A stretch of 64,000 nt of DNA, taken from the NCBI GenBank assembly GCA_963738405.1, contig CAVTWJ010000012.1, positions 94,609 to 158,608 of the forward strand. The letters run 5' to 3'. The stretch is from a candidate division FCPU426 bacterium (GTDB lineage: Bacteria > Oederibacteriota > Muellerivitia > Muellerivitales > Muellerivitaceae). The translations under genes and the position numbers were made by a program. This document shows positions 46,399 through 64,000 of the stretch, piece by piece (within the stretch, counting starts at the first letter, position 1; each line of letters starts with the position of its first letter). The notes beneath the pieces were generated by a model. The model was not told the DNA's origin and did not search any database. It was given only the letters and a program-made list of their open reading frames with translations.

Positions 46399-46452
46399 CT
46401 CCGCGATATTTTAGTTTTATTTTGAAATAGAGCGAAGAAAAATAAGAAAAAT

Positions 46453-47478
46453 AAGGGGTCAGGCCTCCATTTTCCATTCTTCAATCTTTTTGGCTAATCC
46501 CTTATCCTTCAACAGCCTCACCTTCATCTTCACCCAACGGTTCCCCACCGCCGTTAGCCCAACCCCCATCCTTTTCCCTATTTCCTTTAAACTCAATCCC
46601 GATTCCCGTTTCAGCAAGTAGATCGCGACGTCCCGCGCCTCCGACCCCCGTTTCCCTGCCCTTAACAGTTCTTCCGGTTTTTCCCCGTAAGCTGTCGCCA
46701 CTTTTCTTATCAGTCTGTCCGGATCCTGTTTAACCACATGCTTTTGGTATTTCGGCACATCCAAATGTTTATGCTTTTGCCCCGCCTCATGAACCCTGTC
46801 CAAAAACTCCTCTTTCCCCAAATACAGCCTGGAACGCAATTCATCCCACGGGGATTCTTTTCTTCCCATCCCCTCCGTCACAAATGCCCGATAGGCCTTT
46901 CGGGCTTGTTGAAGGGTTCTCCCGAATTGTCCCAATAACCAATCGGTTTCCAGCCATTTTTCCGGTTGCTCCAACCCAGCAGTGGCCTTGTAGCTGCTCC
47001 ATTTCCACTCACCGGGGCTTTTGACCATCCGGGCCCTGACGGGATTCAATACCACATACCGGCATAATTCCTTCAAATAACTGTCTTTCTCCACCACAAT
47101 CGCCTTATACCTTCCTTGGAATAGATGCCCCACCCTATGGTGCTTTTTATTGAATTTCTGGGTGTAAATGCCGTTAAAGTGTTTCATCGCCAAGGAAAGA
47201 TTTGCTGCTGGAGTTTCCAGAAGCAAATGGTAATGGTTATCCATCAAAACCCATGCATGGCAGGTGACGTCGTGATGATCGACCATCTCAGCCAAAAGGC
47301 GGACAAACATTCCCCGGTCGGCATCGTCGAGGACAATCTTCCGCCGCTCGTTTCCCCGGGAAGTGACGTGATAAACGGCGCCCTCATAATGAATCCGCTT
47401 GGGTCTTGGCATACCAGCATTTTAATCGGCACCTTCTATTTGTAAAATGGAATATGGAGGCCTGACCCCTTTTTTTTA
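46453..47478 (-). mobile_element. Y1/RAYT-like element copy 1, bounded by 26-bp inverted repeats
   Basis: 46453-46478 AAGGGGTCAGGCCTCCATTTTCCATT matches the reverse complement of 47446-47471 at 25/26 positions; right-end sequence is shared with copy 2 up to T8A. Confidence 0.75.
46459..47412 (-). CDS. HUH Y1 tyrosine transposase (IS200/RAYT-like) with C-terminal DnaA_C-like HTH
   Basis: YHVTSRGN, HUH motif NHYHLL, GHLFQGRY, RYVVLNPVRA, WSSY; C-terminal ARDVAIYLL...SLKEIG. Confidence 0.9.
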   Translation of the reverse strand: MPRPKRIHYEGAVYHVTSRGNERRKIVLDDADRGMFVRLLAEMVDHHDVTCHAWVLMDNHYHLLLETPAANLSLAMKHFNGIYTQKFNKKHHRVGHLFQGRYKAIVVEKDSYLKELCRYVVLNPVRARMVKSPGEWKWSSYKATAGLEQPEKWLETDWLLGQFGRTLQQARKAYRAFVTEGMGRKESPWDELRSRLYLGKEEFLDRVHEAGQKHKHLDVPKYQKHVVKQDPDRLIRKVATAYGEKPEELLRAGKRGSEARDVAIYLLKRESGLSLKEIGKRMGVGLTAVGNRWVKMKVRLLKDKGLAKKIEEWKMEA

Positions 47479-47502
47479 AAACAAACACGAACGGCGAACT
47501 GG

Positions 47503-47552
47503 GATCGCCACGTCGCCAACCGCCCCGATTGGGGCGGCTCCTCGCGATGACA
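47503..47552 (-). repeat. Palindromic REP-like element (single copy in window)
   Basis: Reverse strand TGTCATCGCGAGGAGC...GCGACGTGGCGATC with inner hairpin CCGCCCC-GATT-GGGGCGG; resembles the widespread GTCATTGCGAG...GCAATC intergenic repeats. Confidence 0.5.
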
Positions 47553-47605
47553 GCCTGAGCCCAAACTATAATGCTCAAACTGATACACTACCGAGGCCTG
47601 AAATT

Positions 47606-49315
47606 TCACGGCCCTTTGAGGGAATGAATGGAAAATAGGCTGAAGTCCGGGCATCTAAACTCAAGCAAGGCATAGATGGATTGGTGATAGTTTTCTTTCA
47701 TGTACTGGTTGAAATGATTTCCCTCCTCGGTGGAACAATTAAAAAAAACATGGGGATTATCCACCGCGTCCCTCAAGGGGTCATGGACCCCGAAACGATC
47801 CAAACCTTTTAAGCTATTGGGGCTCGTTTCCGAAAATGAAGTGACGAATAAATGAAAGGGCCTTAAGCATTCCAGGTCGTCCAAAACCCCGAATTTCTCC
47901 AGGGAAATAGTCCAAAACTCATAGAGCTGATGGTCTTGCGGATTCACCAGCTTTAAAAAACCGTGCAATCGCTCCTGCGACACCCGATTGTTCAGGTTCT
48001 GCCTGTAGTAATCCAAGAATGAGGGCAGGCCGCAAAAAAACGCGGCCAAAAGAACCAGCGCTTTCACTTTGCCGTCCCAGCCCTTCCGGGCTATTCCCCA
48101 TGGAGCTTCCGAGTTGAGCATGGTTAGCATGGCCAAATAGGCGAGGATGGGTAAAGTGACTCGGTCGGGTGCCCTGAAAAAATAAATGAGACACAAAAAC
48201 ACGAACAGCACCCATAAAAATTGGATTCCAAAATATTTCTGAAAATCCTTGGGGCAAAAAGGAAGGAAGATAAGAAAGCACAGGATGATACGGGCGTCCC
48301 AGGGCGAAACCAGAAGTTCCAGAAGGCCGTCATAAGTCGCTATCTTTCCCTCGGTGCCGAAACGGGAAAAATGGGCCCCCAGTTTTTGAAAGTGTTCGGT
48401 GTTGAATTTTCGGAAATCTGTGTAAAACCAGTTTTTAAACAGCCAATAATCATTCTCGCTCCATCCCACCGAATCGAAATAGGGTTTAGTTTGGGGGGAA
48501 TAGCTTGTAATCCGATAATCCTGCAACTCGACCCGGGCCTGGTCAAAATGGAGATACTCGCTCCATGCTTTGTCGCCATGAAACCAAGCGAAGTTGATCC
48601 CAGCCAGAACCATAATCCCCACCGCGATCATCGCCAGAAACCAGGCCCGACCCCGAACATAACCTCTGAAGCCCTTGTCCCTGAATCGCGTTGCTAGTAA
48701 GGGAACGGCAACAAGCCAGGCCAAAAAAAATGAATCCATTCGAATAAGGGCTGAGAGAAGGAGTAGCAAACCGGAAGCCGCTAAAATCGAGCTCCGGCGT
48801 CCGCTTCCAAAACTTTCGTGGTTTAAAACCAAAACCAGAATCCCGACGAAAGCGGCTAAAAGGGCTGTCATGGTGAATTGCATATAGGTGAAAAACAAAA
48901 AAAAGATGCAAGCCCAGGTCCCGATAAAGAGGCCGAGATGAAACCATCGCCTGGGTTTTTCGATTAAAAGCCAAAGGAAAACCCAAAAGGTGAAAAACTG
49001 GGTCCAGCATAAAAACCATCCATACCAGGGGATGGCCGGGACCCAGGCGAACAACTTGACCATTAGATAACCCAGCAGGATGCTGGAATAACCCACGAAG
49101 GGGGAAGGCGTCGAATCGGCCCCGAAACCCTTGACGGCCAATATTTTATAGATGTCGTCGTTGGCCATATAAAAAGGCCTTATCAAATATAACTGGATCG
49201 TGAACAGAAGGAGGGTCGCCGCGAACGAGAAAAGCGCCGGATTTTTCCAAATGCCCTCCGAAGGCCGAAGAAAGGGCTCGTAGGTTCCGGGCGCTGTGGA
49301 CGGGGAATTTAGCAT
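47606..49315 (-). CDS. Polytopic membrane protein (possible GT-C glycosyltransferase-like)
   Basis: About 11-12 hydrophobic segments, NDD in the first loop, LIRMDS motif. Confidence 0.65.
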   Translation of the reverse strand: MLNSPSTAPGTYEPFLRPSEGIWKNPALFSFAATLLLFTIQLYLIRPFYMANDDIYKILAVKGFGADSTPSPFVGYSSILLGYLMVKLFAWVPAIPWYGWFLCWTQFFTFWVFLWLLIEKPRRWFHLGLFIGTWACIFFLFFTYMQFTMTALLAAFVGILVLVLNHESFGSGRRSSILAASGLLLLLSALIRMDSFFLAWLVAVPLLATRFRDKGFRGYVRGRAWFLAMIAVGIMVLAGINFAWFHGDKAWSEYLHFDQARVELQDYRITSYSPQTKPYFDSVGWSENDYWLFKNWFYTDFRKFNTEHFQKLGAHFSRFGTEGKIATYDGLLELLVSPWDARIILCFLIFLPFCPKDFQKYFGIQFLWVLFVFLCLIYFFRAPDRVTLPILAYLAMLTMLNSEAPWGIARKGWDGKVKALVLLAAFFCGLPSFLDYYRQNLNNRVSQERLHGFLKLVNPQDHQLYEFWTISLEKFGVLDDLECLRPFHLFVTSFSETSPNSLKGLDRFGVHDPLRDAVDNPHVFFNCSTEEGNHFNQYMKENYHQSIYALLEFRCPDFSLFSIHSLKGP

Positions 49316-49340
49316 CGGTTCGATTTTATCATGCAGGCTA

Positions 49341-49780
49341 TTAAAGCGCTCCGGTCCATGCCGAAGAAGGTTGTTGATCCAACCTGGCCTGGAGTGCGCT
49401 TCCGTTTTTCACGAAAATCGCGAAGGTTTGATCCGCCGGATAAAAAGTTAAAAAACGGTATTGTTTGGAGAAATAGGGCAAAAACCCTTTTCCGGAGGAA
49501 TTCAAGACGATGACATCCGGCGGGGCCTGGTGTAATTGCGTCATCAACCGGTCCGTCCACTTTTGCCGCATCGGAGTGTCGATCAGGGCCCAGACGTAAA
49601 AGATCCATGCGGGGGGGCTTCGGCGGGATGCGAAATAGAGGCCGGTTTCGTTGCCGAACTCGTAAAAAGTTTCCTGGGGTTTCAAAAGCCGATCGAGGTT
49701 TCCAGCCAATCGATAGGAATCGACGAAAACCGGCCCGTACTTTTCTCGGGACCATTGTTCGGGACTCAGGGCGTAATTGG
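49341..49780 (-). pseudogene. C-terminal gene fragment cut at repeat 1 (resembles the soluble tail of an ArnT-like membrane glycosyltransferase)
   Basis: PNYALSPEQWSREKYG...FYEFGNETGLYFASRR...PPDVIVL begins directly at the repeat edge with no native start. Confidence 0.65.
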
Positions 49781-49817
49781 GTTGCACACCATCCTTTTTG
49801 CGAGGGCCATGTGCAGG
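49781..49817 (+). repeat. 37-bp repeat R1
   Basis: GTTGCACACCATCCTTTTTGCGAGGGCCATGTGCAGG, exact. Confidence 0.99.
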
Positions 49818-49847
49818 CCTCCTTGGACAAAATCTTTTTTGGTTAAC

Positions 49848-49884
49848 GTTGCACACCATCCTTTTTGGGAGGGCCATGTGCAGG
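49848..49884 (+). repeat. 37-bp repeat R2 (C>G at position 21)
   Basis: One mismatch at 49868, in the predicted loop. Confidence 0.99.
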
Positions 49885-50069
49885 CTCGTGTAGTAAGGAA
49901 GGAAGCCAAAAACAATCTTGTTTACACCAACTACCGGCGTCACGATCGGATAGGGGCTCTGGGCATAAACGATTTGGGAAGAGAACGTTAAAAACCAAAC
50001 GGCAATGAAGATTAAGAACCCACTTTTCAAGTAACTTCTTGTCAGATAAGAATTTTTACAAATGAACAT
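49885..50069 (-). pseudogene. N-terminal fragment of a secreted protein cut at repeat 2 (possibly GH18-like)
   Basis: Signal peptide (...SQIVYAQ) then KIVFGFLPYYTS running straight into the repeat. Confidence 0.6.
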
Positions 50070-50105
50070 TTTTTATAATTCCAGATAAAAAAATCTAGCA
50101 ACTGC

Positions 50106-50816
50106 TCATCTTTGGGATATGTCAGAGGCGACAGGAATAACTTTATTTATTACTTTGTCGCTTTTCGCACCACCTTCGCCTAAAGCGACAATCGCAAAAT
50201 AGTAATTCTTACCATTAGTTAAATTACCAATTTTAATTTGGGTTTCTTTTATGTCCCCATCGAGCCTCTTTTTAAAATTTCTTCCGTCTTCCGAAATGTA
50301 AATTAAATAGCCCATCCCCCCCAAAGGTTTACCATCCGGACTTTTATCCCAATTGCTTGGAACTTCATCCCAAGACAAATAAGCGGAGCCATCACCGGGT
50401 TTGATTTTAAAATTTGTCGGAGTTAAGGGTTTGGGAATTCTTCGAACCGTACCGGGAATACCGAAAGATTTTAATTTTCCTTCTTTCTTCAATTCTTCAT
50501 ATTTTTTTGATTGCGCTTCATGAGCCTCTTTCATAGAACCTGGTTCTCGTTCACCATTAGGATCAAAAACAACTTTCTTCTTCTTTGGTTTTATTGACCC
50601 AACAACATTGGTTGGCGTTCCTATGGGCACAGGTTGAGATATTTGAGCGGGGGTAGTTGAAGGATCTAATAAATTTGAACCATTGGGTGATGGTGTCTGC
50701 CCTAGCACTGATTTGCTAAATAAAAAGACGATTAAAAAAAAGGGAATGGTAAAAGCAAAAAGTGTCATGCCTGAAAAAAGAATATTGGATTTGACTCTGG
50801 GACTTGGCTTTTTCAT
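50106..50816 (-). CDS. Secreted/membrane-anchored protein with C-terminal fibronectin type III domain
   Basis: N-terminal hydrophobic segment; PTNFKIKPGDGSAYLSW...GYLIY...NLTNGKNYYFAIVA. Confidence 0.8.
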   Translation of the reverse strand: MKKPSPRVKSNILFSGMTLFAFTIPFFLIVFLFSKSVLGQTPSPNGSNLLDPSTTPAQISQPVPIGTPTNVVGSIKPKKKKVVFDPNGEREPGSMKEAHEAQSKKYEELKKEGKLKSFGIPGTVRRIPKPLTPTNFKIKPGDGSAYLSWDEVPSNWDKSPDGKPLGGMGYLIYISEDGRNFKKRLDGDIKETQIKIGNLTNGKNYYFAIVALGEGGAKSDKVINKVIPVASDISQR

Positions 50817-50961
50817 CTATATACCCCCTCACAGAAATTTAATTGTTAGTGCCGAAGAGTCCTTGAGGTTTGTGCTGGATACGCCCCCGTTTGGGGAGCC
50901 ATTTGCGCCTGAATATTGTCACACCATAACCTTTTCAACCTGAGCATGCGCTATGACCTTA

Positions 50962-50998
50962 GTTGCACACCATCCTTTTTGCGAGGGCCATGTGCAGG
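50962..50998 (+). repeat. 37-bp repeat R3
   Basis: Exact copy. Confidence 0.99.
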
Positions 50999-51036
50999 TC
51001 AAAGTACATGTCAGTACAGGACTTGCACAACTTGCC

Positions 51037-51073
51037 GTTGCACACCATCCTTTTTGCGAGGGCCATGTGCAGG
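51037..51073 (+). repeat. 37-bp repeat R4
   Basis: Exact copy, 38 nt after R3. Confidence 0.99.
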
Positions 51074-51097
51074 AGCCTGTGAACAAAGGGGCCAGGC

Positions 51098-52359
51098 TGG
51101 ACTTCCCCCGAAAAAATGGACACCTGAGATGAGTGTAGAATACAGCTTACGGGGGTGTCTGTCATGGCGCATCGAATCAATAGGAAATATAGCCTTGAGT
51201 TTAAGCTGGAAGCGGTTCGACTCTCGAATGAGTCGGGTAAGCCAGTTACTCAAGTGGCCCGCGATCTGAATATCAATCCCGCTTTTCTTTACCGTTGGCG
51301 TGATGAAATCCATAAAGAAGGTTCCAAAGCTTTTCCGGGAAAGCCTGGCCGGAGTGTCAAAAGCCCCGAAAATGCTGAGATCATCCGTCTGCGCAAGGAA
51401 GTCAAACGGCTCACGGATGAGCGCGACATACTAAAAAAAACTCTAGTCTTCTTCGCGGCCGAAGAAGCCAAAAATTCGAATGCATCCGAGAACAACAAAC
51501 CCAATACTCCATAACGATGTTGTGTCGTGTTCTTGGGGTCTCTCGTAGTGGCTATTACGCATGGTTGAATCGAGAACCGTCGAAGAGAGACAAAGAAAAC
51601 ATATTGGTTTTACAGGAAATTCGAGAAGTCTATTTGATATCGAGAAAGGCGTATGGATCCCCGAGAATTCACGCGGGGCTGAAGAAAGAAGGTTTTGGTT
51701 GGGGGCGCAATCGAATCGCTAGATTGATGAAAATGGCTGGAATTCGGGCCTTGAGGCAGTACTACTACCGACGTTGCACGTTGACGAATCATGGGAGGAT
51801 AAGAACCAAGAACCTGGTGAAACAAAAGTTCGATATTAAGAAGCCCAATAGAATCTGGGCATCTGATATTACCCAGTTTCGTACAGGGGCTGGTTGGTTG
51901 TACCTGGCGGTCGTGATGGATCTTTTTTCTCGGCGAATCATTGGTTGGTCAATGCAACCCCATCTGCGGGAGGAATTGGCCATCGATGCCTTGAAGATGG
52001 CGATTCAAGAAAGAGGTGATCAAACGCCGAAGATTCATCATTCGGATCAAGGCAGTCAGTATTCTTCGAGAGCTTTTATTAATGAACTGAAAGAGCATCG
52101 GATCCAAAGCTCGATGAACCAAAGGGGAAGTTGCTACGACAACGCGGTGGTCGAAAGCTTCTTCAAAACCTTGAAAGCAGAGTTGGTGAGAACCGTGCGG
52201 TTCAACACGAAGGAAGAGGCGAAAGCTAAGTTGTTTGAATATATAGAGATTTTTTACAACCGGAAGAGATTGCATTCCACCTTGGGCTACAAAAGTCCGG
52301 TGGAGTTTGAGGGAACAACTACACTAAACTAGATTGTCCACTAAATCGGGGGAAGTCCA
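51098..52359 (+). mobile_element. IS3-family insertion sequence (1262 bp)
   Basis: TG...CA ends; IRL TGGACTTCCCCCGAAAAAATGGACA versus IRR (reverse complement) TGGACTTCCCCCGATTTAGTGGACA; 3-bp target duplication GGC at 51095-51097 and 52360-52362. Confidence 0.96.
51164..52332 (+). CDS. IS3 transposase OrfAB (-1 programmed frameshift)
   Basis: OrfA HTH (RKYSLEFKLEAV...ERDILKK); A8 run at 51433-51440 whose -1 frame is open into OrfB (WASDIT, HHSDQGSQY, DNAVVESFF). Confidence 0.93.
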
Positions 52360-52362
52360 GGC

Positions 52363-53310
52363 CTACATTTTACACTTTAGAAGCCTCTTGGCGAACGCCC
52401 GGTCTTTAGCCATCTTCGTCTTGATCCTCGCCCATTGGTTCCCCACCGCCGAAAAACCTACCCCCATTCTTTTCCCGATCTCTTTTAAACTCAATCCCGA
52501 CTCTTTTTTCAGCCAATAAATCGCCACTTCCCGCGCTTCCCGCCTTCTCCGGACTGATTTCAGTATCTCGTCCGGCTTTTCCCCGTACACTACCCCGATC
52601 TTCTCCAGTACCATTGCCGGTTCCTTTTTAACCACATGTTTCTGGTACTTGGGCACATCCAGGTGGCGGTGTCTTCGCCCCACCTCGTGCACCCTGTCCA
52701 AGAATTCTTCTTTTCCCAGGTAAACCTGGGAATAAAGCTCTTCCCAAGGCGACTCTTTCTTGCCCATTCCATCCGCCACAAACTGCTTATAACTTTCTTG
52801 GGCCTGTTTTGCCGTTTTTCCGAACTGACCCAAGATCCAGTCTGTTTCCAGCCATTTTTGCGGTTGCTCCAACCCAGCAGTGGCCTTGTAGCTGCTCCAT
52901 TTCCACTCACCGGGGCTTTTGACCATCCGGGCCCTGACGGGATTCAATACCACATACCGGCATAATTCTTTCAAATAACTGTCTTTCTCCACCACAATCG
53001 CCTTATACCTTCCTTGGAATAGATGCCCCACCCTATGGTGCTTTTTATTGAATTTCTGGGTGTAAATGCCGTTAAAGTGTTTCATCGCCAAGGAAAGATT
53101 TGCCGCGGGAGTTTCCAGAAGCAAATGGTAATGGTTATCCATCAAAACCCATGCATGGCAGGTGACGTCGTGATGCTCGACCATCTCAGCCAAAAGGCGG
53201 ACAAACATTCCCCGGTCGGCATCGTCGAGGACAATCTTCCGCCGCTCGTTTCCCCGGGAAGTGACGTGATAAACGGCGCCCTCATAATGAATCCGCTTGG
53301 GTCTTGGCAT
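52363..53310 (-). CDS. HUH Y1 tyrosine transposase (IS200/RAYT-like), copy 2
   Basis: Same motifs as 46459-47412; N-terminal half almost identical, C-terminal half diverged. Confidence 0.9.
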   Translation of the reverse strand: MPRPKRIHYEGAVYHVTSRGNERRKIVLDDADRGMFVRLLAEMVEHHDVTCHAWVLMDNHYHLLLETPAANLSLAMKHFNGIYTQKFNKKHHRVGHLFQGRYKAIVVEKDSYLKELCRYVVLNPVRARMVKSPGEWKWSSYKATAGLEQPQKWLETDWILGQFGKTAKQAQESYKQFVADGMGKKESPWEELYSQVYLGKEEFLDRVHEVGRRHRHLDVPKYQKHVVKKEPAMVLEKIGVVYGEKPDEILKSVRRRREAREVAIYWLKKESGLSLKEIGKRMGVGFSAVGNQWARIKTKMAKDRAFAKRLLKCKM

Positions 53311-53402
53311 ACCAGCATTTTAATCGGCACCTTCTATTTGTAAAATGGAATATGGAGGCCTGACCCCTTTTTTTTATAGATGATTAATTCCCTGCTTATA
53401 TA

Positions 53403-53439
53403 GTTGCACACCATCCTTTTTGCGAGGGCCATGTGCAGG
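53403..53439 (+). repeat. 37-bp repeat R5
   Basis: Exact copy. Confidence 0.99.
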
Positions 53440-54010
53440 CCATTGGGAGGCCCTGGTTGGAACCGATTTTTTCACTTGGGAGGTCTGGGAACCTTGGGGC
53501 TTGACCACTTATTACGTACTTTTCCTTATCCACCAAGCGAGCCGAAAAGTCCACATAGCCGGTATCACGACCAACCCTGATGGGGATTGGATGAAGCAAA
53601 TAGCCAAAAACCTAACCATGCCGGACTGGGGTTTCCTCAAACAAGGGATGATTTTATTGCACGATCGGGGCGGTCAATTCTGCCCGACTTTCCGGCGAAT
53701 CTTGCAAAACGAGGGAATCCAAACCCTGATGCTTCCCTTCCAAAGCCCAAATCTCAATGCCTATGCGGAACGTTGGGTAAGGTCCGTAAAGGAAGAATGC
53801 TTATCCAAGATGATTATTTTGGGAGAACCGATGTTACGAAACTCTTTGAAGGAATATCTCGCTCATTTCCATGGGGAGCGTCCCCACCAAGGACTTGGCC
53901 GTATTCCCTTTCCTGCCCGAGAACTAACCAGAGGAAGCCCAAAGGGCAAGATCGTCTGTCGTCAAAGGCTCGGCGGAATCCTTAACTTCTACTTCCGGGA
54001 GGCGGCGTGA
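53440..54010 (+). pseudogene. 5'-truncated integrase-core (DDE) transposase
   Basis: HWEALVGTDFFTWE...LLHDRGGQF...PNLNAYAERWVRSVKEEC...RPHQGLG; closely matches 63466-64000 but lacks everything upstream, which is replaced by R5. Confidence 0.9.
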
Positions 54011-54039
54011 ATAAGTGAACCCTACGCCCTTTACCTCGG

Positions 54040-54585
54040 CTACTTTAGCAATAGAGTAAATCGGAAGAGATTCATGAGAAAAACCAAAACCAAAAACGGA
54101 ATCCCAAACAATAGGGCCAAATCGAAAACCAGTCTTTTAAACGTCGGCTGTAATGATTTTCCTAATTTGTAAAAAAAAGTGATGTACAAAAAAGCTATCA
54201 GGAGCGGAACAAAAAAACACAGCCACGACCGCACGCCCCCATTCCACCCCGAAATAAACAAGCCAAACACGATCACATAAAGGAAAATCAAAAACCCCAA
54301 AAGAGTCTCGAACCATTTCAAATGCGGCTTCTCGCGATCCCACGAGCCCCTAGCCTTTTGGACGGCGATATGCGCCACAACTGTCGTCCCCAAAAACAGC
54401 GGAAACAAGAAAAGACACCCATACCCCAAAGTGTTAGAAATTTGATCTTCTTGAAAAATAGAACGCTCATTGACGAGTTTTTCCCAAAAGCCTTCAAGAA
54501 CAATCAAAAAAAACAAAACGGCGGCTACCCACACTCCGAGTTTTTCATAGTTCACCGCCGTCCCCTTATGCGTTCTCATGGGCAA
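54040..54585 (-). CDS. Membrane protein, putative immunity protein
   Basis: About five TM segments; overlaps the stop of the upstream toxin-like ORF. Confidence 0.6.
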   Translation of the reverse strand: MPMRTHKGTAVNYEKLGVWVAAVLFFLIVLEGFWEKLVNERSIFQEDQISNTLGYGCLFLFPLFLGTTVVAHIAVQKARGSWDREKPHLKWFETLLGFLIFLYVIVFGLFISGWNGGVRSWLCFFVPLLIAFLYITFFYKLGKSLQPTFKRLVFDLALLFGIPFLVLVFLMNLFRFTLLLK

Positions 54586-54950
54586 CCGCCAGGATTAATG
54601 TTTGGTTGTTTAAAGAGTTGGAAGCCCGCCGATATGTCAGCCGCCGCCCGTTGACTATTCCCAAGGGGTGTCTTGGGTACTCCAGGCCCAATAGGATTGC
54701 TCCACGGTAACTTTCGGACAAGCGCCGCTATCTCTTGTGCCTGCTCTTCTGTATAACCCGCCGCCGCCATATAGACTCCGTAATTCACATTTCCCAAATC
54801 ATGCAGTTGTACCTTCGTGTAAAAGTCAGGGTTGTTGTAGTCATAGCCGTAAGGGTTGTTGGGGTTATAGTTGGAATTTACAAAAGGCAAAACGTGCGTG
54901 CCCCAGTCATCGGGCCCGCCCTGGCCCAATAGTTGGTTTATTGAAAATTT
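54576..54950 (-). pseudogene. Orphan polymorphic toxin C-terminus (Ntox44-like RNase)
   Basis: NQLLGQGGPDDW...HDLGNVNYGVYMAAAGY resembles the GNxNYG motif of Ntox44; no convincing native start; 5' limit approximate. Confidence 0.6.
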
Positions 54951-54977
54951 TTGAAATTTTATTCACTGTTTCCGGCC

Positions 54978-55231
54978 TCATTTTATTGCAAACGTCGAAT
55001 CTGGAATTCCCTTATCCACTTCATCCGTCACCACATCCATATCCGCACTCACGTCGAAATTATTCGTATGGCTTTCAGTGTGTGTATGCAAAGGATGGTA
55101 AGTGCTCCCAATTTTTTGGTAGGTCGCGTCCATGTTTAAGACCGTCTTCCCATTTTTGTCCTTCCCTTCCATGTGGGTAACTGTGTTGGTATCCGGATCA
55201 ACCTTGATGGTTGCATGATCCACGTTCTTTG
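54978..55231 (-). pseudogene. C-terminal fragment cut at repeat 6 (LolA-like lipoprotein-sorting protein tail)
   Basis: ATIKVDPDT...KDKNGKTV...EVDKGIPDSTF; the only start codon is a GTG inside the repeat. Confidence 0.55.
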
Positions 55232-55268
55232 GTTGCACACCATCCTTTTTGCGAGGGCCATGTGCAGG
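55232..55268 (+). repeat. 37-bp repeat R6
   Basis: Exact copy. Confidence 0.99.
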
Positions 55269-55271
55269 TCA

Positions 55272-55976
55272 TCATTTCCAATAAATATTAAAAACAAGAA
55301 TTAAATAATTGATCACTCCGTGGCATACAAGAGAGGTTATCAAAACATTTGTCTTTTCATACAAAAGTCCTAAAACAAGCCCACTTAGTAAATAATATAA
55401 AAAATCATAACCTCCTCTTGATGAAGTAAAAGTAATATGCATAGTAGCGAAAACAAAACCTTGAAGAATTAATGCCCACCATAAATTCATATGGTTTTTA
55501 AAAAAATTAAAGACAATTCCTCGGAAAAAAAATTCTTCACTTATGGGTCCTAATATAATTGTTTGAAATCCTAAAATAGTAACGGGAAAAGTTAAGACAC
55601 TTATCCATCCTATTTCATTTTTAGGGGCTGTATGTATAAGTGACAAATTCCAATAAGGGGTAAGACGAACAAAAATAATCAGGGCAAAACCAACCAAAAT
55701 ACCAATTATCCAATTCCGATCTAAATAACTACTCTTATTTAATAAAATGATTTGTTTAAAGAAATTCTTATTTTTGAACTTTGCATAATAAAAAGGGACA
55801 ACAATGTTAATAATCAATGCAAAATACCCAAACAGAAATTCTGCGATCAAATTATTATTGAGGAAATATTGGGCAAAAAGAAAACCAATAAATTTTAAAA
55901 TAAATATAAAAATTACAAGTAAAGAAAAGTCAATTAATGTTAAATCAAATTTATTCTTAAGGTGGTACGCTGCCAT
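55272..55976 (-). CDS. CPBP/Abi (CAAX protease-like) intramembrane protein, putative immunity
   Basis: PISEEFFFRG, FATMH and CHGVIN motifs; overlaps the end of the Rhs ORF; stop codon 3 nt from R6. Confidence 0.9.
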   Translation of the reverse strand: MAAYHLKNKFDLTLIDFSLLVIFIFILKFIGFLFAQYFLNNNLIAEFLFGYFALIINIVVPFYYAKFKNKNFFKQIILLNKSSYLDRNWIIGILVGFALIIFVRLTPYWNLSLIHTAPKNEIGWISVLTFPVTILGFQTIILGPISEEFFFRGIVFNFFKNHMNLWWALILQGFVFATMHITFTSSRGGYDFLYYLLSGLVLGLLYEKTNVLITSLVCHGVINYLILVFNIYWK

Positions 55977-56910
55977 TACAAATGGCCTCCCAAAACGCTT
56001 TCCAATTAAAAAAGCTATCCCAATTATCCATTAATTCGCCGGGAAATTGATGACCAGAATATGATTTTGCCGTGTCAACATCATCAAGCCAATCGACAAC
56101 ATCATTATTAAGTAATGGGCTTATTACAGCAGGAACTATTTCTAAATTTCCAGGGCCATAAATGTTGGGGAACGGAAGGTATTGTGTGTTATAAGGCCAA
56201 ACATTAGGCGTCTTAACTACACCATTATTCGCATTGTTTTTCCCATTACCATTTCCTACCCCACAAATACTACAACCGCCACCACCGTTACTAGATGGAG
56301 TTGATGTTGGCGTTGGGTTTTGGACAGGTGTTGGTGGTGAACAAAGTAAACCAGATAGATCAATAAATCTAAATGGGTTGTTTAATACCATCGAATATAA
56401 GTTTTGTCCGGCTCTTTCATTCAAAGGGTCTCGGTTCAACCATCTTCCCTTATTTGCGTCGTAGGCTCTGAATAAAGTTAAGTCTAATCCTGTTGCATTT
56501 TCTTGGTAGAAACCTGTGTAACCAAAGTCGGAATCCAGATCACCGGATAGCTTTGTCTTTCTCCCATACGTATCGTAATCATAATTTGCATGAATAGTTC
56601 CACCACCGTCCGTCATTTCTCTTATGTTTTCGAGATGATCTCTTGTATAAAAATACTGTGTTGTACCGATAATCTCTCCCATAACAAAGAACTGTTTGGC
56701 TACCGTGTGCCCGGTCGCGTCCCTTTGTTGACATAACTGTCCCCAGCACCAAACAAGTGTTTTATTCGTTAAAACTATTGCCCCATGACTTTCAGTTATG
56801 CCTATCCTTCTTCCCCAACCGTCATAGCTCATCGTTACCGTATCCGCCACTCCTGGCGGCTGGGGGTTCAGGAAGGTGACGCTGATCAACCTGTTTTCCG
56901 CATTCCTGTT
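55957..56910 (-). pseudogene. Orphan Rhs core fragment with variable C-terminus
   Basis: AENRLISV, YDGWGRR, YTRDHLENIRE, FGYTG, FRAYDANKGRWLNRDP, NNPFRFIDLSGL; 5' limit approximate. Confidence 0.9.
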
Positions 56911-56930
56911 TAAGAAAAGCAAAATCAATT

Positions 56931-57428
56931 CTAGGTTTTATTTGAATACTTTCTTTGAAAAGCTTCAATGTCAGGACCCAATTCTAAATTTGGTATTTTC
57001 GATTTGATAATTTCAATAAGTTGGCACAAATCACTTCCGTTAAACAAAACGGCTAAATGCATAGAAAATGTTTTACTCGCATTTAAAGAAGCGTTTGGGT
57101 TCATACAGAAAATTGTGAGCGAGGGAAAAACCCCAATAACAGAATTTATTTTTTTTATTTCTTCCCATCTAACCATTTGGCCTTTAGATAAAACACCACT
57201 CTCCTTAATCCCTTCTTCGTAGACTATTAATTTAATTGTCAATATAAACGGTACTATTGGGCCAAGCAGACCATAAAAGATAAAATTTAACGTGATATAA
57301 AGGGTGGGCAAGTGGCCGATGAAATTTACCCATGCTGGAATAACAAACACTAAAAGGAAAAAAATCACAAAAACCCACCAGATTTTAGAAATTCTAAAAA
57401 CCTTAAAAGATTTTTTCATTTCGCCCAA
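56931..57428 (-). CDS. Two-TM protein, putative immunity protein
   Basis: SD GGAGGG; two TM segments plus a soluble tail (VRWEEIKKI); directly downstream of a toxin-like tip. Confidence 0.6.
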   Translation of the reverse strand: MGEMKKSFKVFRISKIWWVFVIFFLLVFVIPAWVNFIGHLPTLYITLNFIFYGLLGPIVPFILTIKLIVYEEGIKESGVLSKGQMVRWEEIKKINSVIGVFPSLTIFCMNPNASLNASKTFSMHLAVLFNGSDLCQLIEIIKSKIPNLELGPDIEAFQRKYSNKT

Positions 57429-57475
57429 GGTTTTCCCTCCTCCCTGTTGAATTTAAATCAACTCAATGAAAAACC

Positions 57476-57719
57476 TTACCCATTGCATCCAGGATTAATG
57501 TTAACTATTGGACTGTGTAATAAACTAGAAAGTCCACATAACAAACCTTCCGCAGTAAGCTCTAATACTTCCATAACGCTGTAACCAATATCTCCCATAC
57601 CGAGTGCCAGTTGCCCACCAGGCCCCGCCGTTTTACACGCCATATAATCTAAAAGATTTAAATTGGGTGCGCGTTTATCAGCAAGTCCGAACCCAATTTC
57701 CAAAAGGCCTGATCCTAAA
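57476..57719 (-). pseudogene. C-terminal fragment cut at repeat 7 (probable Rhs toxin tip)
   Basis: Gly/Leu-rich frame LGSGLLEIGFG...NINPGCNG is open from the repeat edge. Confidence 0.55.
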
Positions 57720-57756
57720 GTTGCACACCATCCTTTTTGCGAGGGCCATGTGCAGG
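57720..57756 (+). repeat. 37-bp repeat R7
   Basis: Exact copy. Confidence 0.99.
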
Positions 57757-57931
57757 CACGGTCGTATTAATGACTTCAGTATTCTTGGGCGGCGTTGGAA
57801 TGAGCCTGGCCCAAACTCCGGTTCCGTCTGGAGCTCCGAGAAAGATTGTCAAACATGTTAAGCATGCGAAGGTCGTTAAGGTTTGGAAGGCGGCGAAACC
57901 CTATTCTTCCAAAACACCAACGGTTAAATAA
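57757..57931 (+). pseudogene. Small secreted Lys-rich protein with its signal peptide cut by repeat 7
   Basis: TVVLMTSVFLGGVGMSLA-QTPVPS...KHVKHAK... lacks the basic n-region and native start. Confidence 0.55.
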
Positions 57932-57981
57932 TTAATAATTGGTGTTTGTTTATTCAACGAATAACTTTGGATGCCCTTGCG

Positions 57982-58635
57982 TTAAGATGTTAACTTTTCG
58001 TAAATAATAACATTAGAATTTTTTAATACTTTAAGATTATACGTCATTCCCTCGGATAAATAATTTCTTGAAAAGTATAGTGTATAAAAAGAATTATTTT
58101 CCCCTTTTAAAAGAATATTTTGTATTAAAAACCATGTCTGCGGCATGGGTCCGGGGGTATCAGCATCTATAATTGACGTTTTGGAAACCATAATTTGTTC
58201 ACCTGTAATAAGACCGGAAATATCTTTAACTAAAGGTATATTGATATAAATTCCCACAAAAAAGACAAATACGGAGAATATTTTTGTAACCAGGTGCCAG
58301 GTTTTAAATGTAATATTCCGATATTTTTGGCTATCAAGTGTTCCTGATTTTTCTTGAGTCAGAAACCTTGGATTTAAAAAAATATAAACTGCAAGAATCG
58401 GTATTTCGCCCTTAACAATTATTGCCCCAATTAAGTGAACTACTACTTCTGGCAACAGCAACATAAACAACAAAAACAAACCTAAAGAAAACAACCAGAT
58501 AGACGAATAAATAATTATTTTTTTGTTTCTGGAAGAACTTTGTAATTTGTGGCCTTTGATCTCATTCAGCAGGTTTCGTTTTTGCATCCTCTTTTTGGTT
58601 ATCTCCGCCCGTAATATGGTTAATGCCATTTTCAA
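57982..58635 (-). CDS. Membrane protein, putative Rhs immunity protein
   Basis: AT-rich, about three TM segments, overlaps the 3' end of the Rhs gene; start uncertain. Confidence 0.6.
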   Translation of the reverse strand: MKMALTILRAEITKKRMQKRNLLNEIKGHKLQSSSRNKKIIIYSSIWLFSLGLFLLFMLLLPEVVVHLIGAIIVKGEIPILAVYIFLNPRFLTQEKSGTLDSQKYRNITFKTWHLVTKIFSVFVFFVGIYINIPLVKDISGLITGEQIMVSKTSIIDADTPGPMPQTWFLIQNILLKGENNSFYTLYFSRNYLSEGMTYNLKVLKNSNVIIYEKLTS

Positions 58636-61178
58636 CGGTTTTGTTTACTTTATCTTCAGCGCCAGTCCCTTTATAAATACTTTCTTCTTCATTAGAAGCT
58701 ACACTAGATAAAGTTCTGGCACCAAATAATTTAACTCCGGTCTTTACGGAAATATCACTTATTTCCTTTTTCGCTCCATTTAATGCATTTTCCACACCTT
58801 CTCCGAATTTTGTTTTTATCTGTTTCTCTAACGCGGTTATGCTTCCTTTGCCCGTAATATCATTAAGTTTTAGAGTTTTTGCTACTTTGTCAAAAAGTTT
58901 GCTTGTTACAAGACTGGTTCCTATTTCTGTAACATATGATGCAGCATTAAATTTTGATGATTTCCCTTCGATGACATCATGTATCTGCCCAAGAAGATTC
59001 GAAGTCGTTGCGGAAGCAACAGCCCCAGCAGCAGGCGATCCATATAAAGTAGCTTCTCCTCCGACACCGCCAGCTATTGCAGCTTGAAAGTAACCAAATC
59101 CATCCGTTTTGCCCGAAATTTTTTGTGCAATAGCTTCAGTTACTATTCCCCCAACAACCCCAGCTGATATTGCAGCCACATCGTCCCATCCAGCCCACCT
59201 TCCATCGGTATCCCGGAGTTTCACCGGATTATTTTGTGCATATGAATAAAGACCAAGATTCCCAGGGTTATAAATACCGTTGTGGGGCTTTCCGTTCAAA
59301 TAAGTATCCAAAATGGGGTCGGGACTTTGCCAAACACTCGTCCTCGGATCGTAATACCGTACTCCGAAATAATACAGCCCAGTCTCTGAATCCCATTCTT
59401 TATCAGTGAAAGAGTAGTTCGGGAAAAGTTGAAGGCTCGCTTCCTGGTCGATCCAAAATTCGCCAAATGGAATGTATTCAATATGTTCGGACAAGACTCC
59501 AGATCCATCGGACATGTAGCCAGTGCTTCCCAAATGATCGGGATGGTAGAAGAATACAAAGTAGTTCTGGGGTATCACGCTGGAACTAGGCCACACACCC
59601 TGACAGGAAGAGGGAGTACCAACGGTTGCCGCTGCCGACTGAACATAAGCTGTCTGACCGTTGTAATAGACTTCGTAAAAACCCGTATATTGGTTCAACG
59701 TCTGCAGGGTCAATGTCTGACAACTGTTGATTGTTCCTAAAACGGTCCCTTCCACCGAATCAGATGCATATAGCGGCGTGCCATCACTCAAAACGGTCAC
59801 ATATTGAATCTGTTGACTTGACCCATTGTTATTGCCTTGGGAATCAACTTGCTGACTGTACTGGCTCCAATTGGCATTCCGGCCCCAACTCATATTGGCT
59901 GAACTCACAAGAGTATATCCACTGCTGTTTCCACAAGAAGGACAGGGAGTGCAATTGGGGCAAGGGAAAGTCGCCTGATCAATCGCCAAGGTCTGATCAT
60001 CCTTCGCATTCACAATCTGGCTGGCAATCCTATTTGAACCTATAAAAATGTGCTTGCTAGCCACAAAACCGTTACAACTTTGAGGCTTCTCAAGTGTGTA
60101 AAACTGATTAATGTAGGCGTTGATATTACCACCTTGGAGCTTGTAAACGCGGCTTCCCTTATCGTCATAAACAAAATGAACATCACTAGTATTAGTCGCT
60201 TGAACTCCAGGATCACCGTCGCCTACTGCTACAAGACGATTTTCCTCATCCCATACCATGTTGCGGTTTGTGCTGTAATCGCAGTCACCAGGCAAAACGT
60301 CAAAACCTAATTGGTTTCCATTGCTGTCGTAGAAGAAGTCCCGTAGGCCGATCTGCGTAGGGGCATGTGGATGGGTACTGTTGTAAGAATACTTCCAATC
60401 GTAGGTCAGACGGGTATCGGGTCCAATCGTTGTCAGCCCCGTCGGCTCATTCACTTGGGTAAAGGTTGCCGCCTGATTCTTTTCTTGGATGTTGTTAATG
60501 TTGTCATAAGTCATCGCAAGGTTATAAGTACTGTCGTAGGTCGATCCACAAGAAGGATCGAAAATCGAATGGATTGTTCCCGTGGCATTCGTCAGCCGAT
60601 AAAGGTCGTCGTAACCAAAGGTCTGGGTTACTCCCCCACCTAACAAATGTCCAGGCATAGGTGCTATCGCGTTGGCAAAGGTCGTAACATTGCCAACTGC
60701 GTCATAACTATAGTTTAGATTTTGGAAAGTTACAGGCCCAGTCAGGCTTTGCAGATTGCTTAACCGTCGAGTTGTTGGTACATATGAGTAACTTGTCTGG
60801 GTTCCATTTCCATGTTGTAAGAATACCCTTTGCTCAAACTTATCGTACTCAAGCCGTAACACATAAGGAAATATCTCATTTTTAACCGTGCCTGTCGCCA
60901 TCCTAGGTAATCCACCCGAGTCGTATTCATAAGTCAGAACTTCACCATCGGGATATGTCATTGCTTCCAGGCGGCCCCAGGTATCAAAGGTGTATTGGGT
61001 CACGTAAGTTAGCGGCATGGCACCTGCGGCGTAAAGACTGCCACTCGGTGCTCCCCAACCCGTGAACGAACCAGAAGAGCCAGAAGTAGTATTGGATGTT
61101 CCAGAACGACCCCATCCGGAAGAACTCCCGCTTCCTGAACCTTCCCATACCCCGAATCCTCCGCAGGTGGGGCATTGG
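58562..61178 (-). pseudogene. 5'-truncated large Rhs/YD-repeat toxin
   Basis: YTFDTWGRL, YSYDAVGNV, FGYDDLYRL, WDEENRL, YHPDHLGST, FTDKEWDSETGLYYFGVRYYDP, NNPVKLRDTDG; the frame is open from 61177 (QCPTCGG...) at the R8 edge. Confidence 0.92.
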
Positions 61179-61215
61179 GTTGCACACCATCCTTTTTGCG
61201 AGGGCCATGTGCAGG
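61179..61215 (+). repeat. 37-bp repeat R8
   Basis: Exact copy. Confidence 0.99.
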
Positions 61216-61827
61216 TTCAGGGATTGCCCGGTCTTTGGGGGAGGTAATCCCGGTGATGTGGAAGGCGGAACCCTTCAGGGTGAGGCTTTGCACCTCCATT
61301 GCCGAATTGTCCGCCCTGTCTTTATTGCGCGGATCAAGAAAAAAGGCCATCCAACCGCGCCATTAAATTATGTCATCTATACCAATGATTTTATGAAACA
61401 TCTCACCACCTTTTCCTATTCGGGGGAGGTCGTGACACCGGACCAGGCTCCTGTTTCCTATCAATGGGTGACTTTTGGTATTGACCCGGTAAATCCGTCC
61501 AAACCCTTTGAGGCTCAATGCACCTATCTCGGTTTCCAAACTGATTCAGGTCACCCGGTTAAAGAGGACCCAGGTTGCGATGATTGTTATTTGGTGTCGG
61601 AGGTGGGAAATTCAGGGGATTTGGCAAATTCGGCCGAGATGTCATTTGACGGGGGTGCCCATCTTTCAAGGGCGGCCTATTCAACCGACGGGGGTAAAAC
61701 CTGGCTGGATAAATTCGAATGGGACGCCAATATCGTCATCTTAGGGCCCGACTGTATTGAACCTCAAAAGCTTGAGGGTATTTCCATACCGACACCCCAA
61801 CCCCTCCCTAAGGAATTGAACCAATGA
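61216..61827 (+). pseudogene. Probably 5'-truncated hypothetical protein beginning at repeat 8
   Basis: Open frame FRDCPVFGGG...AAYSTDGGKTW...; coupled (ATGA) to the next gene; an in-frame ATG lies inside the repeat. Confidence 0.55.
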
Positions 61828-62957
61828 AAAGAGGCTTTTCTTTAGTTGGCTATTCCCTTCTGTTTCTGATGGTTTGCGGAAGCCTATTCTCCCAACAATA
61901 TGTGGATAGTTTTCTCGAGGCTCGGCAATCGGCTAATGAAGCCTTCAATAAAGGGGATTTAAACACTGCTTTAAAGGAAGAAAAGCGGGCCTTGGGTTTG
62001 GCTCAGGGAAAATACGGCCAGTTTCATCCTTCACTCGTACCTGTATTGAACGACCTCGCCACGCTGGAAAGGTATTTGGGCCAATACCAGGATGCGGAGA
62101 AATATTACAAATTAGGCCTTACGATCCGGGAACAAATCCTGGGGATGGATGACCCTCTGGTGGCCGAATCCCTCGATAACTTGGCCGTCCTGTATGACGA
62201 TCTGGAAAGGGATGAAGAAGCTCAAATTTTAGAAAAACGGGCATTAGCCTTACGTGAGGGACAAAAAGGGTTTGTCGTAAATGATTCCTATCTGCGCGAA
62301 CTTCTCCAATTAGGAAAAACCCATACTCGTTTAAAAAATTACGAAGATGCCGGAAAAACCCTTGGTAAAGCCATGGCATTGGCCAACAAGACATTACCTT
62401 CAGGTAGTCCTTTTAATAGTGAAGTTATCGAAGCATTGTCCGATGCGGAATTAGGGGGCGGTCACCCGGATTTGGCGGAAGCTGATTTATTGAAATCCCT
62501 GGAACTTAAGAAGGCAAGGTTGACGGAAAACAATTACGAGGTTGGAAATCTTTATAAAAAGCTGGGGGATTTTTACAGGGATTTAGGGAAAAAAGATGAA
62601 GGCCAGGGGTATTACCAAAAAGCCCTTAAAGTTCATCTCCGTTATATCAGTGGCTCCTGTGATTATATGAACGTTGATCGATTTGATGAGGCTTCGAATG
62701 ATTACCTGGCCTTGGGGGACCACGCGGAATCGTTGAAGCTTAAGAAACAGGTTCTGAAAACCTTGGTCGAGATGTGGGGGAAGGATAATCCCCTTTCGGC
62801 GATTTGTCAGGCGGTAATGGCTGAGAACGAAGCGGCTTTGGGGGAAAAAGATGAAGCCCTGTCGGATCTTCAACAGGCTTTGGGGATATTAAAGGACGAA
62901 TTAGGCCCGGATCACACTTTGACGAGAGGGGTTATTAAAATTTTAACAGAACCATAG
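61824..62957 (+). CDS. Secreted TPR protein (kinesin-light-chain-type repeats)
   Basis: Signal peptide; LNDLATL...LTIREQILGMDDPLVAESLDNLAVLY. Confidence 0.88.
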   Translation: MKRGFSLVGYSLLFLMVCGSLFSQQYVDSFLEARQSANEAFNKGDLNTALKEEKRALGLAQGKYGQFHPSLVPVLNDLATLERYLGQYQDAEKYYKLGLTIREQILGMDDPLVAESLDNLAVLYDDLERDEEAQILEKRALALREGQKGFVVNDSYLRELLQLGKTHTRLKNYEDAGKTLGKAMALANKTLPSGSPFNSEVIEALSDAELGGGHPDLAEADLLKSLELKKARLTENNYEVGNLYKKLGDFYRDLGKKDEGQGYYQKALKVHLRYISGSCDYMNVDRFDEASNDYLALGDHAESLKLKKQVLKTLVEMWGKDNPLSAICQAVMAENEAALGEKDEALSDLQQALGILKDELGPDHTLTRGVIKILTEP

Positions 62958-62966
62958 GACACGGAT

Positions 62967-64000
62967 ATGAACTACCAAATCTTTTTCACGCTTCTAGCCG
63001 CCCTTTTGAATCCCGAAAAACGCTCCCTCATGGACTTCTACGAATCCCAAATCAGGTTTCTCCTGGCCCACCTTCCCAAACGACCCGTTCCTACCTTGGG
63101 ACAGAAAATGGACATGTCAAAGGCAGCGGCCAAATTAGGAAGAAAAGGCCTTAAAGAAATTCTCACTCTTTTTAACCCCTGACACTCTCCTGCGTTGGCA
63201 AAGGGAAGCTGTCCGGGAAAAGTGGGATTATTCCAAAAATCGGGGCCCCGGAAGGCCGTCTCTGGCCAAGAATATTGAAAAGCTGGTGGTCCAATTCGCC
63301 CAGAACAATCCCTCTTGGGGATACAAACATATCCGGGACAGCCTGAAAACCTTGGGATTCATTGTCGGCAAAACCACAATCCGCAACATCCTTAAAAGGC
63401 ATGACTTAAACCCAGCCCCGGAAAGAATAAAGAATGGCCCTACCTGGGCCGAGTTCACAAAGTCACACTGGGAAGCACTCGTTGGAACCGACTTTTTTAC
63501 CTGGGAGATTTGGGAGCCTTGGGGTCTTACTACCTACTATGTTCTATTCCTCATCCATCAAGCCACAAGGAAAGTCCATATTGCCGGTATCACGACCAAT
63601 CCTGATGGGAATTGGATGAAGCAAATAGCCAAAAACCTAACCATGCCGGACTGGGGTTTCCTCAAACAAGGGATGATTTTATTGCACGATCGGGGCGGTC
63701 AATTCTGCCCGGCTTTCAGGAGAATCCTGCAAAACGAGGGAATCCAAACCTTGATGCTTCCCTTCCAAAGCCCAAATCTCAATGCCTATGCGGAGCGGTG
63801 GGTAAGGTCCGTAAAGGAAGAATGCTTATCCAAGATGATTATCTTGGGAGAACCGATGTTACGAAACACTTTGAAGGAATATCTCGCTCATTTCCATGGG
63901 GAGCGTCCCCATCAAGGACTTGGCCATATTCCCTTTCCTGCCCGAGAACTAACCAGAGGTAGCCCAAAAGGCAAGATCGTCCGCCGTCAAAGGCTCGGCG
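62967..64000 (+). pseudogene. Integrase-core (DDE) transposase, frameshifted near 63170-63180, runs off the window
   Basis: ORF 62967-63182 stops at LTLFNP*, while the next frame continues PDTLLRW...GPGRP...NPSWGY...TDFFT...NAYAERWVRSVKEEC. Confidence 0.85.

Follow-up and report, generated by a model that had tools for sequence, protein, structure and literature searches.

DNA fragments of widely varying length between copies of a 37-nt repeat that adjoins cas1-cas2 in relatives of a candidate division FCPU426 bacterium

The window analyzed here is the last 64 kb of contig C12 in a metagenome-assembled genome (MAG; 3.18 Mb, 23 contigs, 90.7% complete) of a candidate division FCPU426 bacterium. 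Between positions 49781 and 61215, it contains eight copies (R1 to R8) of a 37-nucleotide (nt) repeat, GTTGCACACCATCCTTTTTGCGAGGGCCATGTGCAGG, all on the plus strand, which separate cassettes (S1 to S7) of 30, 1077, 38, 2329, 1792, 2451, and 3422 nt. Nucleotide-exact pairs of donor and cassette indicate that the cassettes are sub-fragments of longer DNA, and in relatives the repeat adjoins a module of cas1 and cas2. On balance, we consider it probable that Cas1-Cas2 attaches the ends of DNA pieces, almost regardless of their length, to the borders of the repeat, in a reaction akin to spacer acquisition in CRISPR systems.

A sharply bordered repeat in an irregular array

Seven of the eight copies are identical (R1, 49781 to 49817, with 0 mismatches; R3, 50962 to 50998; R4, 51037 to 51073; R5, 53403 to 53439; R6, 55232 to 55268; R7, 57720 to 57756; and R8, 61179 to 61215). 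The single change is found in R2 (49848 to 49884), a C20G variant that occurs in the same form on contigs C4 and C23 of the same genome, near whose starts five further copies of the repeat lie. The chance expectation for the 37-mer was 0 copies (100 shuffles), and every copy has unique flanks right to its edge. Among 31 genomes of the family searched (G000 denotes the window's own genome and other G numbers denote family genomes), the repeat was present with three or fewer mismatches in 7, from 5 of 17 genera. No match to it was found in the viral contigs searched, and an Rfam scan of positions 46000 to 64000, repeat included, gave zero matches. A strong structural argument for the repeat was dropped, as it folds into just a 6-bp terminal stem that is no better than that of shuffled sequences (z of -1.2; range, -0.5 to -2.4).

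As in a CRISPR array, the direct repeats are short (within 23 to 55 nt), near-identical, and sharply bordered; the similar short spacers of such arrays (about 26 to 72 nt) are absent. The window array is not a regular CRISPR array. Across the fetched loci, gaps between same-strand neighbors (n = 50) range from 30 nt to 14,100 nt with no preferred length, and 6 are below 150 nt.

Genes are cut at the repeat borders of the window

A preliminary description of this DNA proposed that reading frames are broken at the repeat boundary, and homologues reveal a cut gene or insertion sequence (IS) at five of the eight edges that it named. To the left of R1, the minus strand (49344 to 49780) encodes the headless C-terminal 145 amino acids (aa) of a membrane protein of ~500 aa. 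Homology of this fragment (49344 to 49778) to two relatives, one of which has a PMT_2 domain, starts at its residue 2 (residue 372 of 527) and residue 7 (residue 368 of 503), in line with the C-terminal fragment predicted there. The headless transposase to the right of R5 belongs to an rve-type IS, the 3' 589 nt of which (53440 to 54028, plus strand) form the first part of S5 (53440 to 55231, 1792 nt). Relative to full copies at the window end and on C13, the break falls exactly at the base after the repeat. On C23, a second copy of this IS with 100% identity is cut as well; its break lies 93 nt further along and abuts the opposite border of a different repeat. The rest of S5 (54029 to 55231, minus strand) comprises an open reading frame (ORF; 54040 to 54585) and a C-terminal fragment of 83 aa (54981 to 55231) cut at the left border of R6, which from its residue 1 matches the end of a 248-aa ORF of G025.

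Both sides of R8 behave in the same way. The Rhs gene on its left is headless, as had been suggested: its frame stays open to 61216, and it aligns to the C-terminal parts of proteins of 1100 to 4100 aa, with homology starting near residue 50 for most matches and at residue 4 for one. On its right, the headless C-terminal half of a secreted protein (61216 to 61827, plus strand) is cut at the border. The 203-aa ORF (61216 to 61824) corresponds from its residue 3 to residues ~209 to 403 of a paralogue on C10 (~402 aa) that has a signal peptide. DNA from 61577 on also duplicates C13:11475-9053 at 96%; an insertion sequence in C13 at that point accounts for the late start of this duplicate. The flanks do not rejoin across R5, which has a RAYT (REP-associated tyrosine transposase; REP, repetitive extragenic palindromic) element at its left and the interior of an IS at its right, or across R8, where genes lie on opposite strands at the two sides. 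No homologue was found in the own genome for the 61-aa signal-peptide-like N terminus to the right of R2, and none was found for the fragment to the left of R7. Gene cutting alone is not beyond chance; homology that ends exactly at repeat borders is.

Two further features of this region were noted. The 37-nt repeat has no stop codon in any of the three minus-strand frames, and hence fusions across it stay open; one 242-aa chimeric ORF (49341 to 50069, minus strand) has a signal-peptide-like start, crosses R2, S1, and R1, and continues as the glycosyltransferase-like fragment. The element that interrupts the C13 copy of the gene to the right of R8 is 1267 nt long and occurs at 100% identity at G000:C13:11476-12742 and C23:41800-43066.

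Cassettes match longer DNA to the nucleotide

The clearest donor and cassette pair involves a 7247-nt cassette in G005 (C72, 952 to 8198) that equals G004:C3:402692-409939 at 99.96%. Both of its ends lie at repeat borders with an ambiguity of at most 1 nt, and G004 is contiguous through both breakpoints. Two sequences on G004:C8 likewise end at a repeat: one, at position 18633, where the DNA of G010 continues (98.6% identity), and another, at position 4519 of locus L063, with a contiguous counterpart on G005:C183. On G004:C1, a cassette begins at codon 7 of dnaX exactly after the repeat. The resident dnaX genes of G000, G004, and G005 share just 74% identity with this copy, which is therefore a piece of another organism's chromosome. 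The rve-type IS described above was cut at two places 93 nt apart, at R5 and on C23, and on G024:C3 a repeat border truncates cas1 itself near codon 106, giving the order repeat, truncated cas1, cas2, 22 nt, repeat. Cassettes of G004 and G005 share one end and not the other. Two homology matches on G004:C8 stop ~155 nt away from the repeat.

At the exact junctions, microhomology is 0 to 1 nt, except at C23 (4 of 6 positions), and no PAM-like (protospacer-adjacent motif) or other base-specific motif was seen at eight exact donor junctions. For S2, S6, and S7, no donor above 63 to 75% nucleotide identity was found in the 31 family genomes.

All of the genomes are MAGs, and metagenome assemblers could have joined unrelated contigs through a shared short repeat. 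The 13 repeat copies of the own genome all lie within 15 kb of a contig end (within 4 kb for those on C4 and C23), segments of 99.9 to 100% identity occur in MAGs of different genera, and one Logan contig joins 49779 to 55231 via the repeat. This join was not used as evidence because the words from which Logan contigs are built (k = 31) are shorter than the 37-nt repeat; in one soil sequencing run, 0.12 of the words were matched, as short Logan contigs. Even a wrong join still needs partners that carry the repeat at the exact place, so that junctions between gene and repeat exist in real molecules. In addition, a unit of 3572 nt between two repeats was assembled with 100% identity in two JGI (Joint Genome Institute) metagenomes and one MAG, and the same arrangement, anchored consistently by cas1-cas2, is seen in 7 genomes. 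An assembly or binning artefact is thus a very remote explanation.

As a separate observation, G004:C3:398763-410499 and G007:C14:82567-94304, from MAGs of different genera, share 11.7 kb at 99.9% identity. The shared stretch stops 376 nt short of where the G004 array has its first repeat and reflects either recent transfer or a binning error.

Cassette ends carry a local, mirror-symmetric signature

After removal of near-duplicate flanks, A or T occupied 246/344 of positions -6 to -3 of cassette ends (72% versus 57% in the background; p = 2e-8, n = 86) and 204/276 of positions +2 to +5 (74% versus 56%; p = 9e-10, n = 69). Background composition is restored beyond ~8 nt; such a local, mirror-symmetric signal fits an enzyme that treats both DNA ends alike. 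To assess how often edges fall within genes, interior positions of the same cassettes were used as the control. A stop-free run of at least 240 nt was present at 32/70 cassette edges versus 556/700 interior positions (Fisher p = 7e-9). A comparison with random genome positions was discarded, being confounded by cassette length and composition. The AT-rich signature may explain why the edges avoid coding sequence. The pieces had been described as unrelated and randomly broken; they are unrelated and broken, although their AT-rich ends and fewer ORF cuts indicate that the breaks are not fully random.

These data bear on a conventional interpretation, namely, that the window holds an ordinary CRISPR array that was orphaned and has decayed, with transposable elements inserted in normal spacers and with deletions or IS rearrangements bringing unrelated DNA to the repeats. 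The region is rich in insertion sequences, the own genome lacks matching cas genes, and S1 (30 nt), S3 (38 nt), and S4 are of normal spacer size. In S4 (51074 to 53402), a RAYT element lies between ~14 nt and ~26 nt of spacer sequence and is in turn interrupted by an IS3-family element (51097 to 52360; target duplication GGC). The 1019-nt RAYT element has 16-nt inverted ends, with its left end at 51086 to 51096, its body at 52361 to 53376, and its gene at 52363 to 53310 on the minus strand. The earlier view of broken pieces does not extend to S4, an ordinary-sized spacer (~37 to 40 nt) holding a RAYT element that was hit by IS3. Decay, however, offers no reason for rearrangements to end at repeat borders, as eight nucleotide-exact junctions do, or for the 7247-nt cassette to have repeats at both ends. 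Nor does it account for the symmetric signature at cassette ends, and no regular array of at least three units was seen among the copies in 7 genomes. We therefore regard a decayed ordinary array as unlikely.

A cas1-cas2 module adjoins the repeat in relatives and is missing from the own genome

Several arrays terminate in a common right-hand flank (AGCCTGTAATTATTGG...). It is the 3' terminus of a gene for a 111-aa protein, and this gene overlaps the end of a full-length cas1. The layout of cas1, cas2, 22 nt, and repeat was found on G004:C1, G007:C5, G024:C15, G024:C16, G024:C3, and G010:C1. The 22-nt spacing is fixed in all six intact modules whose contig reaches the repeat; the seventh (G005:C80) ends inside the repeat. 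The full-length Cas1 scores 241 to 251 bits on TIGR00287. Its alignment with the solved Cas1 structure 4n06 spans the whole protein and takes in the catalytic E, H, and D/E motifs. Together with a ratio of nonsynonymous to synonymous substitution rates (dN/dS) of 0.03 to 0.09, the alignments indicate that Cas1 of the relatives is intact and under purifying selection.

The 111-aa protein was matched to Cas2b by PADLOC in 5/5 copies (E values of 1e-8 to 2e-7). Its Pfam Cas2 match is weak (E = 0.006), hhalign against true Cas2 gave an E value of 7e-4, its structure model was too poor for use (pLDDT [predicted local distance difference test] of 45), and a PDB sequence search with it retrieved nothing. 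The nearest profiles of the pair are Cas1b and Cas2b, which are type I-B-like. Among 70 ORFs around the seven modules, no cas gene other than cas1 and cas2, effector genes included, was detected. The module consists of cas1-cas2 only (~1.44 kb) and is 93 to 98% identical across genera. G024 has three full copies, in which the synonymous distance (dS) of cas1 is near 0, yet the DNA beyond the repeat differs. The module is confined to 5/99 genomes of the phylum, all of the window's family, and has therefore spread recently.

The sole Cas1 of the own genome is 27% identical to that of the module and serves a regular array with another repeat; this normal array, on C23, adjoins Cas6, Cas1, Cas2, and a reverse transcriptase. 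Remnants of the module are nonetheless present in two places. On C23, a repeat is followed by ~70 nt of the cas2-side flank, and in the window, the 7 nt after R4 (AGCCTGT) match the beginning of the conserved flank known from relatives, which marks R4 as the ancestral cas-proximal (terminal) repeat. These remnants indicate that the own genome has lost the matching cas1-cas2 and that its arrays are relics.

In G024 (loci L044, L045, and L048), the cas1-cas2 module is bounded upstream by a palindromic element (GTCCACGACGGG..CCCGTCGTGGAC), which is also found in the own genome at G000:C23:3954-4030 (L010), where cas1-cas2 is deleted. On G024:C3 (L048, 7817 to 9631), the cassette beside the module carries type II methyltransferase-like and DpdB-like genes, such that defence genes are among the cargo.

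Proposed capture by Cas1-Cas2

The position of the repeat 22 nt after cas2 in relatives and the exact donor and cassette pairs support capture resembling spacer acquisition, as the preliminary description had favored over integron activity. In the mechanism that we propose from comparative sequence evidence, Cas1-Cas2 would join free 3' ends of DNA to both borders of the repeat, duplicating the repeat as in spacer acquisition. The smallest inserts accepted would be near 30 nt long, and there would be no maximum length. A full-site event would add one cassette, and the same reaction on a break in neighboring DNA would trim a cassette back to the repeat border. Pieces of 30 nt to several kilobases could in this way become "spacers," drawn from insertion sequences, foreign chromosomes, Rhs toxin/immunity loci, and the module's own cas1. 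Trimming would fit the G004 and G005 cassettes that share one end, the cas1 gene cut at a border, and, less completely, the resemblance of S1 and the end of S3 to a single G005 cassette, described below. The eight repeats and cut genes of the window would then be fossils of capture events, with the matching cas1-cas2 since deleted and the array later invaded by the RAYT element and IS3.

Several observations weigh against this proposal. The 30-nt spacer S1 (49818 to 49847) resembles the inner part of a single 761-nt cassette on G005:C20, and the last 16 nt of the 38-nt spacer S3 (50999 to 51036) resemble the end of that same cassette, for which simple one-step capture is insufficient. ORFs are cut at fewer of the cassette edges (46%) than of the interior positions (79%); the breaks, or their retention, are therefore not random. 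A Cas1 of the module type is missing from the window's genome, and the window itself has no cas gene. Near-identical DNA in MAGs of different genera may be binning error and not biology. Twelve of the fetched repeats have no partner within ~5 kb, and 3 of these 12 keep 180 to 244 nt of cas2. Finally, RAYT elements recur beside arrays in five loci, including G004:C1, G004:C27, G007:C6, and G005:C113.

The last of these points raises the question of whether the 37-nt hairpin repeat could be the site of another recombinase, with RAYT (HUH, Y1) as the candidate, acting by integron-like or rolling-circle capture. In the window, a RAYT gene (NF047646, 92.7 bits) lies both 2.3 kb to the left of R1 and within S4; the order RAYT end, 24 to 35 nt, repeat is common to the window and G004:C27; and the repeat has its 6-bp terminal stem. 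That shared layout, however, may be one inherited cassette (72% identity), and shuffled sequences fold as well as the repeat does (z of -1.2). The RAYT elements have 16-nt inverted ends of their own and different flanking sequence. Most arrays have no adjoining RAYT, whereas every examined intact cas1-cas2 module has the repeat at a fixed 22 nt. A RAYT-type or similar recombinase thus seems to us distinctly improbable as the maker of the arrays.

Comparison with known systems

Canonical CRISPR adaptation shares with the present arrays a partly palindromic, sharp-bordered direct repeat (here of 37 nt), inserts between duplicated repeats, and, in relatives, a Cas1 with catalytic motifs and a Cas2 adjoining the terminal repeat. 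At 30 and 38 nt, the shortest inserts match normal spacers in size. In contrast to canonical systems, inserts here reach 14 kb with no preferred length, and no effector, Cas4, or Cas6 gene is near the module. An AT-rich leader is absent, given that cas2 and the repeat are just 22 nt apart. Up to three full module copies occur per genome, and the window's genome has repeats without the genes. Cas genes beside the array are thus absent from the window and in relatives are limited to cas1-cas2.

Casposons likewise pair a Cas1-family integrase with kilobase DNA and target duplication, and casposases integrate kilobase DNA in vitro. PDB entry 6opm, a casposase, was among the Cas1 matches. Unlike casposons, the inserts described here have no terminal inverted repeats and no polymerase B, Cas2 is present, and the inserts are arbitrary fragments instead of a defined element. 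With integrons, the arrays have in common that cassettes accumulate foreign genes and are anchored at one end by enzyme genes. The cassettes of integrons are complete ORFs, for the most part lacking a promoter, and their attC sites vary (57 to 141 nt); here, the site is an invariant 37-mer and many cassettes have a border inside a gene. Among the ORFs scanned with Pfam, no IntI-type tyrosine recombinase was found.

A short hairpin-forming repeat and a RAYT gene in one neighborhood are also features of REP/RAYT (REPIN) systems. REPs are intergenic, occur in inverted pairs, are numerous, and do not bound foreign fragments. By comparison, the RAYT element here has its own, different 16-nt inverted ends, and neighboring 37-mers are on the same strand in 49/50 pairs (the exception being an inverted pair on G005:C170), with no pair bracketing a RAYT gene. 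Lastly, S6, S7, and the start of C23 resemble Rhs orphan toxin-immunity arrays, in that headless Rhs C-terminal fragments are followed by small membrane or CPBP-type genes. Rhs orphan modules are not bounded by the 37-nt repeat, and the Rhs pieces here are just the cargo of two cassettes.

Other cassette contents and neighboring elements

S2 (49885 to 50961, minus strand, 1077 nt) contains the 61-aa N-terminal fragment (49887 to 50069) that runs into R2 and a whole gene for a 236-aa secreted Fn3-like protein (50106 to 50816), a paralogue of which on C19 covers residues 6 to 232 of 236. S6 (55269 to 57719, minus strand, 2451 nt) is a piece of an Rhs orphan locus. It holds a CPBP/Rce1-like gene (55272 to 55976), with its stop 3 nt from R6, an Rhs tip (55957 to 56928), a membrane ORF (56931 to 57428), and an open frame (57479 to 57719) that runs into R7. 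The longest cassette of the window, S7 (57757 to 61178, minus strand, 3422 nt), consists of an ORF (57982 to 58635) and the headless Rhs fragment (58565 to 61178), the frame of which is open into R8.

To the left of the array, the first copy of the RAYT element (46460 to 47478, minus strand) has 16-nt terminal inverted repeats. Directly after it lies a short element with an internal hairpin (47475 to 47592) that is 77 to 97% identical on at least 8 other contigs of the own genome and is probably a REP family of that genome. At the start of contig C5 (G000:C5:249-581), a ~70-nt palindrome-containing unit is present in five head-to-tail copies. The 37-nt repeat is absent from G009, where relatives of the S5 ORF and the S6 Rhs tip are interspersed in alternation with three copies of RAYT (C64:236394-245312); RAYT elements may be linked to Rhs orphan loci. 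The ORF between the RAYT copy and R1 (47606 to 49315, 569 aa) was considered as a small Cas12-type effector and rejected, being hydrophobic, of membrane type, and without a family match.

Implications

CRISPR adaptation is thought to be tightly length limited by the Cas1-Cas2 "ruler." Whether an effector-less Cas1-Cas2 lineage has lost this spacer-length ruler, and archives DNA with free ends of 30 nt to >10 kb between repeats, is in our estimation evenly balanced. The abstracts of papers retrieved by a full-text literature search describe neither kilobase-long spacers nor Cas1-Cas2 cassette arrays. If a natural Cas1-Cas2 inserts kilobase DNA at a 37-bp site, it would provide a new way for genes to be gained horizontally, the functional link missing between casposons and CRISPR, and a candidate tool for homology-free, site-specific insertion of long DNA. 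The family offers unusually clean test material, with near-identical donor and captured copies that include both breakpoints, a 1.44-kb module amenable to synthesis, and a measurable end preference. To this, the window contributes a large-genome soil lineage, relic arrays without cas genes, donor and captured pairs, and the cassette-end signature.

For the organism itself, the arrays would represent a CRISPR-derived gene-capture device, integron-like in effect, in a large-genome soil bacterium. Such a device would have stored Rhs immunity genes, methyltransferase genes, and pieces of foreign chromosomes, and it may give the host ready-made genes for defence and immunity.

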